NCBI GenBank assembly: GCA_000004695.1
Contig: CM000152.2
Location: forward strand, 5,536,001-5,600,000
Source: Dictyostelium discoideum
Lineage: Eukaryota
Reading direction: 5' to 3'
DNA: 64,000 nt
Notes under the pieces: generated by a model
Database searches by the model: none
The model's input: only the letters and a program-made list of their open reading frames with translations
Told to the model about the DNA's origin: nothing
Shown here: positions 930-45,670 of the stretch, piece by piece
Layout of the letters: the number at the start of each line of letters is the position of its first letter
How positions within the stretch are numbered: position 1 is the first letter of the stretch
Program-made: the position numbers and the translations under genes

Positions 930-3307
<2,378 letters not shown>

Positions 3308-35588: not shown

Positions 35589-36245
35589 TTTTATTTAAAA
35601 TATATATATATATATATATTTTATTTTATATTATTACTTTTTTTTTATTTATTTTTAATTATTGTTTTATTATTTTATTATTATTATTATTTTTTATTTA
35701 TTTTTTATTTCTAATTTTATATTATTACTTTTTTTTTTTTTTTTTTTTTTCTTATTAAATCAATTTATGTATATGTGTTGGGATTTTTTTTTTATTTTTA
35801 TTTTTATTTTAATTTTTTTTTTTATTCTTTTTTTTTTATTTTTTTTATTGTTTTTTTTGATATGTTTTTAAAATAATTTTATAAAAAATTCTAAATGTGG
35901 AATGAAATGTTTAATTAATTATTTTATTTGAACAATATAAAATTTTTATATATACTAATTTTGATTAATAATTGATAGTTTTTCTATGAGTGTTATTATT
36001 ATAATTTTCAAAAAAAAAAAAATAATAAAAACAATTGATATTGGGGTCCAAAAAAAAAAAAAAAGATAATACTGATGAAAATATTGATGTTTTAAAATAA
36101 AAAAATGTAATAATTGATTTATTTTTAAATATTAATTTTAATAATAATAATAAAAATAATAATAACAAAAAAAAAAAAAAAAAACCTTAATGTTGGAATT
36201 GATTTATTTTTAAATATTAATTTTAATAATAATAATAAATAAAAA

Positions 36246-40768: not shown

Positions 40769-42232
40769 CTATATAAAGATAAGTTCTTTTACATTTGGTA
40801 AATCATTTTCTTGAATTATATGATCATATAACCGATTACAAATTGTTAATGATTTTACAGAAGGAATAATAAATGTGTCAAGTTTTTTATTAAAACTAGA
40901 ACCCAATTCTAATGATTCAACCAAAGGTATTACATTAATTGGAATATCTTGATTAAATTTATAACCTAATCTTAATTTTTTAATTGAATCCATGGATCCA
41001 ACTATTAATGGTTTATTAAATTCTGCACCAAGTTTTAAATATTTTAAATTATTAGGAAGATAACCTTTGTTAATTGATTGATTATATCTATCACCCAATA
41101 TTAATGAAGTTATTGAAGTTGATGATAGATTTGCATTTTCAAGTGGTTGATCAAAACAATAACCAAGTTCTAATGATATAATTGATTTTGGAATAGAGTA
41201 TGATTGTAACATTTGGTTAAAAATTCCTGTAATTGATAATGATGTACAAGAATTTGGTATTGAACCTTCAATTAGTGGTTTATCAAATGATACACCTAAA
41301 AATAAATCAACAACAGAGTTTGGTATTGAATTTGGTAAAAGGTTTTGATTAAAATTACTTTTAAATGTTAATTTTAATAAAGAACAAGGTAAATCACCTG
41401 GTGAAATTGGATGATTAAATTTTGAAAATGTTAAATCTGTAATGGATTGACCAAATGAATTTGCTATGATTGGTTGTGACCAACCATTTCCAAAATAAAG
41501 TGTTTTCAATTGTGATGGAAGTTGACCAATTTGAATTTGTTGATTGAAATTATTACCAAATATTAATGTAGTAATACAAGTTGCACCTAAATTTGCATTC
41601 TCTAATGATTGATTAAATGAATGACCAAAATTTAGTAATGTTAAACTTTGTGGTATTGAATATTCTACAATGGGTTGATTAAATAATAAACCAAATTCTA
41701 AAGTTTCCAATTGTTCAGGTAAGCAATCTTGTTGAATTGCTTGATTAAATATTGAAAATCTAATAGTTTTAACTGAATTTGGAATTGATCCATATGATAA
41801 CTGCTCATCATATCCTAATAAATTCAATTCTGTAATGGAGTCTGATTCAAAATATCCCTCTCTTAAATATCTCTTAAAATTTGGAAGTGATAGTTTAGTT
41901 ATTGATTTTGGTAATTTAATTGTTGACGGTTCCATATTATCCAAAATAATAATTGATTTTAAAAAATTTTTATTTTTATATTTATTTAATCTTTTTATAT
42001 CTAAAAAGGTTTTTTCATTCTCACCTATTCTTTCAATCGTACCTTTTAATAATTGATTTGAAATAATTTTTCTTAAATATTTATTTTTCCAAATTTTATT
42101 ATAAAATAATTCACCAATTTCATTATCATTTAAAATTTTAATCAATTGATTTTCTTTATTATCATTCCTAATTAATTTAAATATTAAACTATATTCTTTA
42201 ATAATTATAATTGTACGATTTCTATTATTCAT
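40769..42232 (-). CDS. FNIP-repeat-containing protein (487 aa, single exon)
   Basis: About 15 tandem ~22-aa repeats fit the Dictyostelium FNIP repeat pattern (...L.FG..FNQPL..GSIP.S...L.FG..FNQ.I...LP..L..L.FG; e.g. LEFGLLFNQPIVEYSIPQSLTLLNFGHSFNQSLENANLG, LYFGNGWSQPIIANSFGQSITDLTFSKFNHPI). Uninterrupted ORF. Confidence 0.75.
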   Translation of the reverse strand: MNNRNRTIIIIKEYSLIFKLIRNDNKENQLIKILNDNEIGELFYNKIWKNKYLRKIISNQLLKGTIERIGENEKTFLDIKRLNKYKNKNFLKSIIILDNMEPSTIKLPKSITKLSLPNFKRYLREGYFESDSITELNLLGYDEQLSYGSIPNSVKTIRFSIFNQAIQQDCLPEQLETLEFGLLFNQPIVEYSIPQSLTLLNFGHSFNQSLENANLGATCITTLIFGNNFNQQIQIGQLPSQLKTLYFGNGWSQPIIANSFGQSITDLTFSKFNHPISPGDLPCSLLKLTFKSNFNQNLLPNSIPNSVVDLFLGVSFDKPLIEGSIPNSCTSLSITGIFNQMLQSYSIPKSIISLELGYCFDQPLENANLSSTSITSLILGDRYNQSINKGYLPNNLKYLKLGAEFNKPLIVGSMDSIKKLRLGYKFNQDIPINVIPLVESLELGSSFNKKLDTFIIPSVKSLTICNRLYDHIIQENDLPNVKELIFI

Positions 42233-42398
42233 TTTTTTAAACTAAAATAAAAAAAAAAAAAAAAATCAAATCAAAAAAAAAGTAAAAAAAAAAAAAAAAA
42301 AAAAAATCATTGAGAGTTTTAAATTTAAGTTTTTTCTAAAAAAAATCATTGAGAGGAAAAAAAAAAAGGTAACCAACCTATTGATTCCATCAGGCTTA

Positions 42399-42509
42399 TT
42401 TTCGTCATCACTTATTAACAAAATGATATTGCCCCATAAAATTGTTACAAAATGGAAGAGGTAACAATTTTATGAGGCAATATTATAATGCTAATAAGTG
42501 ATGACGAAA
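42399..42509. repeat. Inverted repeat: ~49-bp arms (42399-42448 and 42461-42509, ~88 percent complementary) around a 12-bp spacer, in a locally GC-richer block upstream of the FNIP gene
   Basis: The left arm is TTTTCGTCATCACTTATTAACAAAATGATATTGCCCCATAAAATTGTTAC. The right arm is GTAACAATTTTATGAGGCAATATTATAATGCTAATAAGTGATGACGAAA, the reverse complement apart from ~6 mismatches. Each arm contains GTGATGA. A CTGA lies ~70 nt downstream (42572), giving a C/D-box-like arrangement. Confidence 0.6.
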
Positions 42510-43875
42510 CTAAGCTTGATGATGATAAAGGAAATTTTAAAAAAAAAAAAAAATCCTCGTTATTTATGATTTCTTCTGATACATCATCGAGACACCATGC
42601 CAATGCCACCATCCTATCTGCCATATCTTCCAAGGCAGGTTTGCCTCATTGAAAGAATTGTACTCCAAGTTTCTGGTTGTGAAAACTGAACTATCACCAC
42701 AAATTAACAAGAAGCTCCTCCATTTTCTTGGGATAATTTCCAAATATTGATAAAAAAGATGTTTGCAAAATTTGCCATTTAAATTATTTGATGTGTAATT
42801 ACATTTTTAAAAAAAAACAATTTAAAATATATTTATATTATAATTAATTACTTATATTTGTTAATGATTATTTTATTTATATTTGTTAATAAAATAAAAA
42901 ATAAGGGAATTTTAAAAGAGCTTTAAATAGTTTCTTGATTTACAACGAATTCAAATTTTTAATTTTATTAAATTTTATTTTAATTATTTTTTTATTTATT
43001 TTATTTTAATTTTTTTTTTTTTTTTTTTTTTGAAATTCAATGGTTATGGATATTTATTTAACAAATCAAATTATTTAAAAGGTATGTTAATTTATTGATT
43101 ATTTAAAAGGTATGTCAATTTTTTTATTGATTTTCTATTTTAATTTAAAAAGTTTTTAAAATCTTTTGGGAAAATGAAATGGAACAAAAAAAAAAAAAAA
43201 AAAATAACTTAATAATATTTAAATTATTTATTATTATTTTTAATATAGAGCCTAAGTTTATTAAAAAAAAAAAAAATTCATTAACTCCCATAACCATAAT
43301 CTAATCAAATAAATCAATATTTATCAGTTATCTTTTGGAAAATGAATAAAAAGTAAAAAATAAAAATAATTTAAAAACAATAGTAAGGAAATTCAACCAA
43401 TATTTAATTTTATTTACCCCCTCACCATATTAAAAATAATTATTATTTTAAGTTATTATAACTAAAGATAAAAAAATTATTATTAATATTAAAGTAATAT
43501 TATTAGTTATGGATTCAAAGTGAAAAATAAAAAAAAAGTAAAAAAAACTGGATTAAAAAAAAAAAAGATCACCTGAACACCTTAAAGAAAGATTGGAGAG
43601 AAGATTGAATGCATTACAATTAGGTGTAGAAATTGGTAATGAATATAGAAATGATAAAGTTAGACAATCACATAGGGGACTCCAACATTTTCAAAAGAAC
43701 AATATCAATTATTGGTTACCATTGTTGTTGAATTGGTTAAAAAAAAAACAAAATTTAGGTATGAATGAAATTGCTCAATTTCTTAATAATAATCAATTAA
43801 ATAAATAAAAGAAAAATAAAACTTTTTTTTTTTTTTTGGCGAGTTGTAAATTAAAATTTTATTTACTGTGTTGTT

Positions 43876-45670
43876 TTAACAAGATGGAGTGCCAGTTATT
43901 GGAGTGAGTGATGTTGATCTTTGGATGTAACCAAATTGGTGAGCACCATTTACAGGGATTTCACCTAACCAACTTGGGAGTTTGTAATTGTTGGTTGAGG
44001 TTTGATCAGCATTCCATATGTCTTGAACGTTTTGTAATTGGAAGTTGAAACCTCTTACTGGTTTAGAACCTTTGTTATTGATGGTAGCATCAACTTGAAT
44101 ATAGTAAACATTGTTACTGTACCATTGATTAATAATCTTTTGGGTAACATTTGCTGAACACGCTGATGGAGTTGGACTTGGTGTTTGAGTTGGGGTTTGT
44201 GTTGGTGTTTGTGTTGGGGTTTCAGTTGGTGTTTGTGTTGGGGTTTCAGTTGGGGTTTGTGTTGGAGTTTGAGTTGGAGTTTGAGTTGGTGTTTGAGTTG
44301 GAGTTGGGGTTTGGGTTGGGGTTGGAGTTGGAGTAGTTGGTTTAGTTGGTTTAGTGTTACCAAAGTATCTGGATGGTCTTGGGCATTCTCTGGTCCAGTT
44401 TTCTTTATTGTTTGGAAGAAAAAAAAAAAAAAAAATAATAATTAGTTTATATTATCTTTTTTTAAAAAATAATAGATTAAAAAAAAAATGAAATAAATAA
44501 TTACCTTGACAAACTGGTACAACACTCCAGCCTCCAATGGTACCACAAAGACTTGGGAAAAATGTATCGGTAATATTTTCTAAAACTCCACCAATTAAAA
44601 CAGTATTATGATTAATACCATAACCTAATTTGAAGATTTCATTGGCATCCATTGGTAATTGATTGAAGCAACGTTCGCAATACATAACTGAAACATATGA
44701 TGCAAAAATAACTTTATCAAATTTAGTCCACATGGCAGCTGCTGAGCACCTATTTTTTTTTTTTATTAAATTATGAAAAAAAAAAAAAAATATTAATAAG
44801 AATAAAAAAAAAAAAAAAAAAAAAAAACAATTTAATAAAATAAAATAAAAAACATACATTGGACATGGTTCACCAGTAGTATACAAATAATGATCTTCCC
44901 AAGTAGCTTTACCATAGAGATCAGTGCTATATTTATATGAATTTAGTTAGAAATATTTAAATTTTTCTTTTTTTTTTTTTTTTTTTCTTTAAAAAAAAAA
45001 TCTTCCAAAGAAATAATAATAAATAATAATAATAATAATAACTTACCAATTCATGATGGCTTTAACTTCACCATGATACATTCTTGAACCACCAGTGTTG
45101 GCACCAGTACACATTAAAGTACCGTTTTTGTGAACAATAGCAGCACCAAATTTAGAATTATTCTCAACAGCAACATTAATTGCACTAATATTTAAAATAA
45201 AAAATATATTTTAGAATAAAAAATAAAAAATAAAAAATAAAAGAAAAATAAAAGGAAGTTGATATATTTACATTCTCATATATTTTGCATGGAATTGTTG
45301 ATCATCCTGTAGTTAATATAATTATTTTAAAAGTTAATAATAATAAAAATAATAATAACAATAATAATAATGTGTAATAACAATAAAGAAAATATAACTT
45401 ACTGGCGATAAATCTTTGAATTGAGTTAAATCTGACTATATGTTTTGATTGATAAAAAAAAAAAAAAAAAATGAAAAATTAGTTTTTTTTTTTGCAAAGC
45501 AAAAATAAAAGAAAAAATGTGTAAAAAAATAAAAAAATAAAAAAAAAAAAAGATTAATAAATTACAGGTGCAATATCGAAATAAGCTGATTTTGGACAAT
45601 TGTTTTTATGTGCTTTTGCAGTTGAAAAAGCAATGATTAATAAAATTAATAAAGAGTAAATTAATTTCAT
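43876..45670 (-). CDS. Secreted Fcy1-type cytosine deaminase (CDA-fold zinc deaminase) fused to a Thr/Pro-rich linker and a C-terminal ~95-aa carbohydrate-binding-like domain. About seven exons on the minus strand; the ATG is at 45670 and the stop at 43876-43878.
   Basis: Exon 1 encodes a signal peptide (MKLIYSLLILLIIAFSTAKA). The deaminase core runs QQFHAKYMRIAINVAVENNSKFGAAIVHKNGTLMCTGANTGGSRMYHGEVKAIMNC|TDLYGKATWEDHYLYTTGEPCPMC|SAAAMWTKFDKVIFASY. It aligns with yeast cytosine deaminase Fcy1 (HGEISTLENCGRLEGKVYKDTTLYTTLSPCDMCTGAIIMYGIPRCVVGEN), with the HxE and PCxxC zinc motifs at canonical spacing. The last exon encodes a (PTQT/PTET)n linker and then SACSANVTQKIINQWYSNNVYYIQVDATINNKGSKPVRGFNFQLQNV...NYKLPSWLGEIPVNGAHQFGYIQRSTSLTPITGTPSC. 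All junctions are GT..AG with consistent phases. Exact exon ends are approximate. Confidence 0.55.
44150..44340. repeat. Degenerate 12/24-nt tandem repeat (GGTGTTTGAGTTGGAGTT... on plus) encoding the (PTQT)n linker of the secreted deaminase
   Basis: About 15 near-identical 12-mers on the plus strand, in frame on the minus strand. Confidence 0.8.

Follow-up and report, generated by a model that had tools for sequence, protein, structure and literature searches.

We describe here a long palindrome in the genome of Dictyostelium discoideum, located in a 64,000-nucleotide (nt) stretch of chromosome 3 (GenBank assembly GCA_000004695.1, contig CM000152.2, positions 5,536,001 to 5,600,000 of the forward strand). 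This whole stretch is referred to as the window, and positions are given in its numbering. The palindrome consists of two 61-nt arms around a short spacer and sits 156 bp upstream of the ATG (42232) of a gene encoding a FNIP-repeat protein. Among the hairpin and palindrome options considered, the favoured one is a young, neutrally evolving inverted duplication that is restricted to the D. discoideum lineage, with about 61 bp on either side of a 12-bp spacer and set in a 413-bp GC-richer non-coding module; we hold this explanation with about even confidence. We infer that the palindrome lacks a function, and it is best seen as proto-hairpin raw material for the microRNA (miRNA) "modules" of Dictyostelium rather than as an established functional gene. 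This view follows from its pre-miRNA-like size, energy per nucleotide and base composition, taken together with the gain and loss of such modules among dictyostelids. The palindrome belongs to no described RNA family and is a hitherto unannotated example of a familiar kind of feature.

According to this explanation, about 61 bp would have been duplicated in inverted orientation around the 12-bp spacer, presumably by a replication template switch or by fold-back repair, and the two copies would have been decaying neutrally ever since the separation of two D. discoideum lineages. If the locus were transcribed across, the Dicer-like enzyme DrnB could plausibly act on the resulting RNA hairpin. 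The turnover of amoebozoan miRNAs is very rapid, only one being shared by D. discoideum and D. firmibasis, and the origin of new hairpins is open (PMC11014262). A single-copy, near-perfect hairpin that was essentially perfect at the split of two D. discoideum lineages would be a concrete and datable example of miRNA raw material. Should it give rise to small RNAs, it offers a rare snapshot of miRNA birth in a lineage that is neither plant nor animal; if none are made, it is an ordinary neutral palindrome.

The inverted repeat and its fold

The palindrome and the sequence adjoining it are made up of the following parts, none of which is assigned to a strand:

42388-42448: left arm of the palindrome, 61 nt (repeat search; all paired in the minimum-free-energy folds of both strands)
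42449-42460: spacer forming the loop, 12 nt, reading AAAATGGAAGAG on the + strand (repeat search, folds)
42461-42521: right arm of the palindrome, 61 nt, carrying GTGATGA at 42498 (repeat search, arm comparison)
42522-42555: linker, TGATGATAAAGG followed by an A15 run at 42541-42555 (read from the sequence)
42556-42800: GC-richer (35%) non-coding block adjoining the palindrome (GC content, broken frames)

The inverted repeat is confirmed, and it is larger than first reported. A model that read the letters of the window had noticed two arms, at 42399-42448 and 42461-42509, around a 12-nt spacer (hereafter the original prediction). Both the repeat search and the direct comparison of the arms bear out this arrangement. 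The coordinates first given fall inside the true arms, which extend further on the outer side, and the left arm as written was 50 nt long and off by one. The estimate of about 43 matches in 49 positions was close to the 44 counted between 42400-42448 and 42461-42509. Over its full 134 bp the palindrome has arms that are 89% complementary in the repeat search, and 54 of the 61 positions pair in the direct comparison.

The 151-nt segment 42380-42530 folds into a single unbroken hairpin, with energies of -73.4 kcal/mol for the + strand RNA, -74.9 kcal/mol for the - strand RNA and -45.3 kcal/mol for single-stranded DNA. A hairpin of around -40 kcal/mol had been expected; the hairpin is indeed there, but as RNA (-73 to -75 kcal/mol) it is far more stable than that. 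The corresponding z-scores were -16.3, -17.2 and -13.6, and none of 200 shuffled sequences was as stable, so that the fold far exceeds its shuffled controls. Of the "hairpin RNA" option that had been put forward, the hairpin-forming structure is supported by these values.

Moreover, the repeat is as unusual for this intergenic DNA as had been claimed. A scan of the window for inverted repeats, with a minimum arm length of 30 nt and a maximum spacer length of 150 nt, returned 60 pairs, and among the best 25 of these, that is the longest, the palindrome was the sole one of complex sequence; the other 24 paired an A-run with a T-run. The description of a GC-richer block was likewise accurate, the GC content being 31% in the hairpin and 35% in the block 42556-42800 compared with 16% in the remaining intergenic region. 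The palindrome and the block together form a discrete module of about 413 bp within this 16%-GC DNA.

Divergence between two D. discoideum lineages

A 21-kb locus of assembly GCA_054883475.1 (L001) is 99.7% identical to the window and contains an identical hairpin. As a second haplotype we used the locus of a divergent D. discoideum isolate (L004, assembly GCA_054859385.1), whose FNIP allele is 96% identical at the protein level. L004 aligns collinearly with the window, and its copy of the palindrome is at the same place (L004:9702-9836, 135 nt), with fold energies of -72.8 and -74.8 kcal/mol. The divergence between the window and L004 was as follows:

Hairpin: 7.5%, 10 substitutions and 1 indel in 134 nt (92.5% identity)
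Loop: 0%, 12 of 12 positions identical
FNIP coding sequence: 3%
FNIP four-fold degenerate sites: 5% (7/139)
Block 42556-42800: 5%, plus indels of 7 bp, 1 bp and 1 bp

With 7.5% divergence against 5% at the four-fold degenerate sites, the hairpin evolves no more slowly than neutral sequence.

We then aligned the two arms of both strains with each other. Column 6 of this four-arm alignment holds an old A/G mismatch common to both strains, whereas every other variable column is a singleton, changed in one arm of one strain. From this pattern it follows that the palindrome was paired at about 60 of its 61 positions when the two lineages split, and each lineage has since gained 5-6 pair-breaking changes. 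No compensatory double changes were found in the arms of the two strains. Five of the ten lineage-specific substitutions are transversions, which break the pair on either strand. If the column-6 mismatch is counted with the transitions, three G-U wobbles remain on each RNA strand; this equal retention of wobbles indicates that neither RNA strand is favoured. The more stable strand of the hairpin also differs between the strains, and the longest run of pairs invariant in both is 14 bp, shorter than a 21-nt small RNA. Judged from these two sequences, the substitutions would be the pattern expected if a DNA palindrome of recent formation or recent homogenisation were decaying neutrally, and not that of a structure held by selection.

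With regard to the block, all six frames of 42556-42800 are broken. It is 95% identical to its L004 counterpart, the 7-bp and the two 1-bp indels preserve no frame, and the gap columns total 18 over its length. In L004, two 1-bp insertions fuse two of the window frames into a longer open stretch (...FLPPETWSTILSMSQNLPWEDMTDRMVALAWCLDEVSEEIINNED). Searches with the block and hairpin gave no Pfam domain in the frames of either the window or L004, no blastx match to the FNIP family, and no exact entry for their open reading frames (ORFs) in a collection of 15 billion proteins; ORF 42445-42645 (- strand) had no phmmer match among 1.84 billion representative proteins. A protein-coding sequence was accordingly rejected on the broken frames, the lack of a Pfam match and the lack of a homologue of ORF 42445-42645(-). 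No sign of RNA structure was seen in the block (z +0.1 and +0.5), which could be a decayed exon or inserted DNA.

Another rearrangement was observed in the same intergenic region. About 175 bp (window 43242-43416; L004:8826-9007) are inverted in place in L004, with collinear flanks and 87% identity in the inverted orientation, which shows that local rearrangements of the strand-switch type occur here.

Several points weigh against explaining the palindrome as a neutral inverted duplication. The source of the duplicated arm sequence and of the GC-richer block was not found in the window or among proteins, and no locus of an outgroup species was obtained by which the duplication could be dated: a search with tupA exons for the orthologous locus in other species returned short fragments, and the one usable contig (L005) stops just past tupA. 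The loop is fully conserved between the strains, and total pairing has stayed nearly constant, at 54/61 in the window and 55/61 plus a bulge in L004. It should also be underlined that a neutrality test on two haplotypes has low power, with about 6 changes seen per lineage where about 3 were expected. Moreover, a miRNA gene needs only a duplex of about 21 nt under constraint and young miRNAs can evolve fast, and stringent miRNA screens are acknowledged to miss low-abundance loci (PMC11014262).

Alternative explanations of the palindrome

The alternative that survives best, and that we nevertheless regard as unlikely, is an unannotated and weakly expressed miRNA or hairpin small interfering RNA (siRNA) gene. 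The palindrome would be traversed by an RNA polymerase II (Pol II) transcript, probably of the - strand, either coming from a promoter upstream of the block or reading through into the FNIP gene, for which the read-through of pri-mir-1177 into its next gene is a precedent; 21-nt RNAs would then be cut from the stem by DrnB and RbdB. With 134 nt and -71.9 to -73.4 kcal/mol (about -0.55 kcal/mol/nt), the hairpin passes the criterion of -0.2 kcal/mol/nt (PMC6161686) and lies within the range of accepted D. discoideum precursors (83-133 nt, -56 to -88 kcal/mol; mir-1177 and mir-1183, PMC11014262). It is intergenic and less AT-rich than its surroundings, as are the known amoebozoan miRNAs, and the miRNA hairpins of D. 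discoideum, which share both properties, are gained and lost as modules between close species (PMC11014262). The sub-threshold Rfam miRNA matches were all to long precursors of the plant type, such as MIR4387 with 58 bits against a gathering score of 84, but these matches reflect generic long-stem structure only. T-runs followed by G have been described upstream of the pri-miRNA and Pol II start sites of D. discoideum (PMC6161686). The G of one such - strand motif is at 43185, which is 664 nt upstream of the hairpin, but this G is not conserved in L004, and on the + strand no such motif was found upstream of the hairpin.

The strain comparison does not favour a gene of this kind either, as the two strains differ in every 21-nt stretch of the stem (the longest run of pairs without any change being the 14 bp given above) and wobble retention shows no strand bias. 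The hairpin is also absent from the published lists of D. discoideum miRNAs (PMC6161686, PMC11014262). The chromosome 3 loci found in the former are at 3.66 and 3.74 Mb, and the table of the latter, which is without coordinates, has no entry between mir-7097 (chromosome 3, 3.74 Mb) and the chromosome 4 loci, even among those passing one of three sets of criteria. Arm probes of 8-11 nt were absent from the miRNA supplements of both papers, in which a positive control confirmed that sequences are present. The hairpin has no 14-mer in common with any published mature miRNA, the sole 14-mer match in the window being at position 3267. Arm 14-mers were likewise absent from the literature texts, the main text of Hinas 2007 gave no match, and no long non-coding RNA (lncRNA) boundary falls within chr3:5,578,200-5,578,799 in the lists of PMC5295588, which were covered in part.

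A narrower form of this idea, to which we give a somewhat smaller chance, is that the palindrome represents a miRNA or hairpin-siRNA gene born only recently and confined to D. discoideum, transcribed from the - strand with the FNIP gene or just upstream of it and diced by DrnB at a low level. If that were true, the two haplotypes would record how a perfect inverted duplication begins to turn into a bulged precursor resembling that of a miRNA.

Less probable again is a remnant of a mobile element, either a foldback element resembling a miniature inverted-repeat transposable element (MITE) or a fragment of a Dictyostelium DNA transposon, in which the palindrome would represent terminal inverted repeats and the block degenerate internal sequence. 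The discrete 413-bp module, with 31-35% GC in 16%-GC DNA, and the decayed reading frames of the block are in keeping with such an origin, and the Dictyostelium transposon thug-S is a known source of multi-copy miRNA hairpins. Against it stands the lack of a second copy in the sequences covered. A pattern search of the 64-kb window with up to 3 mismatches returned the arms themselves and nothing else; blastn-short and tblastx comparisons of 42370-42810 with the rest of the window gave A-run matches only; blastn of the palindrome against about 75 kb of other dictyostelid loci (L005-L007) gave nothing significant; the arm-gap-arm pattern had 0 matches in JGI metagenome contigs; and blastn against plasmid and phage collections found no match. 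The original prediction had itself counted a lack of other genomic copies against its proposals, and this lack extends across the 64 kb and the approximately 75 kb of other dictyostelid loci. Neither is there a convincing target-site duplication. The flanks read TTTATCAT|...|GAATCAAT on the - strand of the window and TTGATCGT|...|AAATCAAT in L004, without any direct repeat abutting the ends of the arms, and the sole candidate is an offset 4-nt ATCA on both sides. Finally, no transposase or other Pfam domain was found in any frame, and the one frame tested, ORF 42445-42645(-), lacks a protein homologue.

It is very unlikely that the palindrome is a cis-regulatory element of the FNIP promoter, to which a dimeric factor would bind or which would modulate transcription by forming a cruciform. 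The features concerned are:

40769-42232, - strand: single-exon gene for a FNIP-repeat protein of 487 aa (ORF; exact protein annotated in a D. discoideum assembly; Pfam PF05725 FNIP)
42242-42297, - strand: T-rich runs followed by G, the likely FNIP core promoter and start region (motif scan; start inferred)

The G's of the start-like motifs, from a - strand scan for a G preceded by 25 nt of which 20 or more are T, are at 42272, 42267 and 42242. As motifs of this type mark Pol II starts in D. discoideum (PMC6161686), the T-rich runs are likely to be the FNIP transcription start region, which remains a prediction from the motifs. With a start at 42242-42272, the palindrome would lie about 115-280 bp upstream of it. 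The contigs containing the FNIP gene in the Logan collection (L002, L003) terminate in homopolymers, so that the 5' end of the transcript cannot be defined from them. A regulatory role would fit this placement, 156 bp from the ATG and about 115 bp from the start-like motifs, which is the same in both strains. In the AT-rich promoters of Dictyostelium, GC-richer islands are often regulatory, which we counted in favour of such a role. However, a palindrome of 134 bp is far larger than any transcription-factor site, it diverges at least as fast as neutral sequence, with the changes that break pairs scattered over the arms, and the invariant stretches are all 14 bp or shorter.

The readings as a small nucleolar RNA (snoRNA) of the box C/D class or as a non-coding RNA (ncRNA) gene driven by the Dictyostelium upstream sequence element (DUSE) are rejected, and, if no small RNAs are made from it, the palindrome should not be annotated as a snoRNA or ncRNA gene from motifs alone. 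We consider it extremely improbable that it is a box C/D gene, with GTGATGA (42498) or ATGATGA (42519) as C box and CTGA (42576) as D box. The gaps from C box end to D box are 71 and 51 nt, respectively, which is an allowed spacing given the 50-97 nt of D. discoideum snoRNAs (PMC8817022), and UGAUGA and CUGA are retained in L004. However, the C box at 42498 is base-paired within the 61-bp stem and hence not free for a terminal kink-turn (k-turn), and the other pair, ATGATGA (42519) with CTGA (42576), spans the A15 run; in L004, moreover, this ATGATGA is ATGACGA, the second TGATGA, in the linker region, being TGACGA there. The 64-kb window holds 10 instances of RTGATGA with a CTGA 50-100 nt after it, so that the arrangement is non-discriminating and at chance level. 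The original prediction had each arm carrying GTGATGA, which holds on the + strand for position 42498 only; the left arm has the reverse complement, a - strand GTGATGA at 42411. As the arms are palindromic, the apparent pair is one motif seen twice. Its CTGA, placed at 42572-42575, is in fact at 42576-42579, while the positions of TGATGATGA (42517-42525) and CCCCATAAA (42432-42440) were correct.

A search of the whole window with Rfam at gathering thresholds, which had been suggested as a check, found nothing, and a permissive scan (E up to 10) returned only generic long-stem miRNA and weak snoRNA matches. The latter scored 14-24 bits against gathering scores of 40-70, and the best of them, DdR5, reached 17.9-19.3 bits (gathering score 70, E = 5-9). 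The locus is also absent from the 47 expressed box C/D snoRNAs, a class seen as discrete RNAs of 66-113 nt, of a genome-wide snoScan and expression screen (PMC8817022). Those on chromosome 3 are at 1.34, 2.04, 2.16, 3.89, 4.41 (two loci), 5.04 and 5.32 Mb (Table S5 of that paper), the nearest to the palindrome (5.578 Mb) being OR8 at 5.32 Mb. With its C box in the stem, motif pairs at chance level and sub-threshold Rfam scores, the snoRNA proposal therefore does not stand.

The DUSE-like element fared no better. CCCCATAA is found in the left arm of the window only, whereas the other arm and both L004 arms read CCTCATAA; it arose by a single T to C substitution in the window lineage (column 48 of the four-arm alignment) and is a derived feature. 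A DUSE-dependent ncRNA gene of the Class I RNA or small nuclear RNA (snRNA) type, which has [AT]CCCA[CT]AA about 60 nt upstream of the RNA start, was rejected as CCCCATAA is not conserved, and neither the Class I model nor any other Dictyostelium ncRNA model in Rfam gave a match.

Neighbouring genes and comparison with known systems

A window position p corresponds to approximately p + 5,536,000 on chromosome 3 of AX4, which puts the palindrome at about chr3:5,578,388-5,578,521; the transfer of coordinates is anchored by tupA (DDB_G0282189) at chr3:5574241-5576373 (PMC5295588 supplement). The intergenic region holding the palindrome measures 1.64 kb, with the FNIP ATG on one side and the 3' end of a - strand multi-exon gene (about 43875-45669) on the other. 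The FNIP gene appears from its sequence to be fast-evolving and lineage-specific, as is suggested by two observations. The two D. discoideum haplotypes differ at 20 non-synonymous and 22 synonymous codons, and the nearest relatives of the protein outside D. discoideum in the protein collection are only about 30% identical, no close orthologue being found there.

The gene on the other side (43875-45669, - strand) encodes a secreted CMP/dCMP-deaminase-like protein of 383 aa with a long Thr/Pro-rich (TQTPT) linker and a C-terminal extension. Its closest relatives found, from D. firmibasis, D. dimigraforme and D. purpureum, are 221-225 aa long and without the C-terminal extension. The relatives in D. 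firmibasis and D. dimigraforme are non-syntenic at the two loci inspected (L006, L007) and are probably paralogues. Within the intergenic region, two strong T-run+G motifs at 43004-43032 (+) and 43185-43210 (-) point towards each other about 150 bp apart, no gene start being annotated nearby, and a 71-aa ORF lies at 43593-43808 (+), downstream of the + strand motif. Further away, the published lncRNA CUFF_2921_1 (AX4 chr3:5571777-5572031) falls by coordinate transfer at about 35777-36031 (+) of the window, between the RapGAP gene DDB_G0282247 and tupA.

Compared with known systems, the palindrome resembles the box C/D snoRNAs of D. discoideum (DdR, CD and OR RNAs) in having RUGAUGA and CUGA 51-71 nt apart in an intergenic GC-richer patch, but it differs from them in that its motifs are explained by chance and symmetry and that no covariance model matches it. 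With the hairpins derived from thug-S it shares the setting in a GC-richer module; those, however, are multi-copy and reside in an intron of a recognisable transposon, whereas the palindrome is apparently single-copy and without transposon features.

The likeness to the precursors of ddi-mir-1177 and ddi-mir-1183 is closer. Like these, the palindrome is a single-copy intergenic stem-loop of about 130 nt with -65 to -88 kcal/mol (about -0.45 to -0.7 kcal/mol/nt), has a lower AT content than the DNA around it and is found a short way upstream of a protein-coding gene of the same strand. In contrast to the D. discoideum miRNA precursors, it is absent from the miRNA lists (PMC6161686, PMC11014262) and known here from sequence alone. 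Its stem is also much more perfectly paired than that of most accepted precursors, and no region of reduced divergence is seen between the strains.

Intergenic inverted duplicates have been surveyed in Drosophila (PMC3176832). Young MIRNA and hairpin RNA loci, among them plant proto-MIRNAs and Drosophila hairpin RNAs (hpRNAs), are similar to the palindrome in their near-perfect long stem, short loop, restriction to one lineage and lack of compensatory change. Both plant proto-MIRNAs and Drosophila hpRNAs are formed by inverted duplication, and the arms of plant proto-MIRNAs match a parent or target gene. The palindrome departs from the latter in this respect, as neither a source nor a target of its arms was found in the window or among proteins. 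With the young MIRNA loci that arise by inverted duplication it nevertheless has in common that its arms were nearly identical at a recent point in time.

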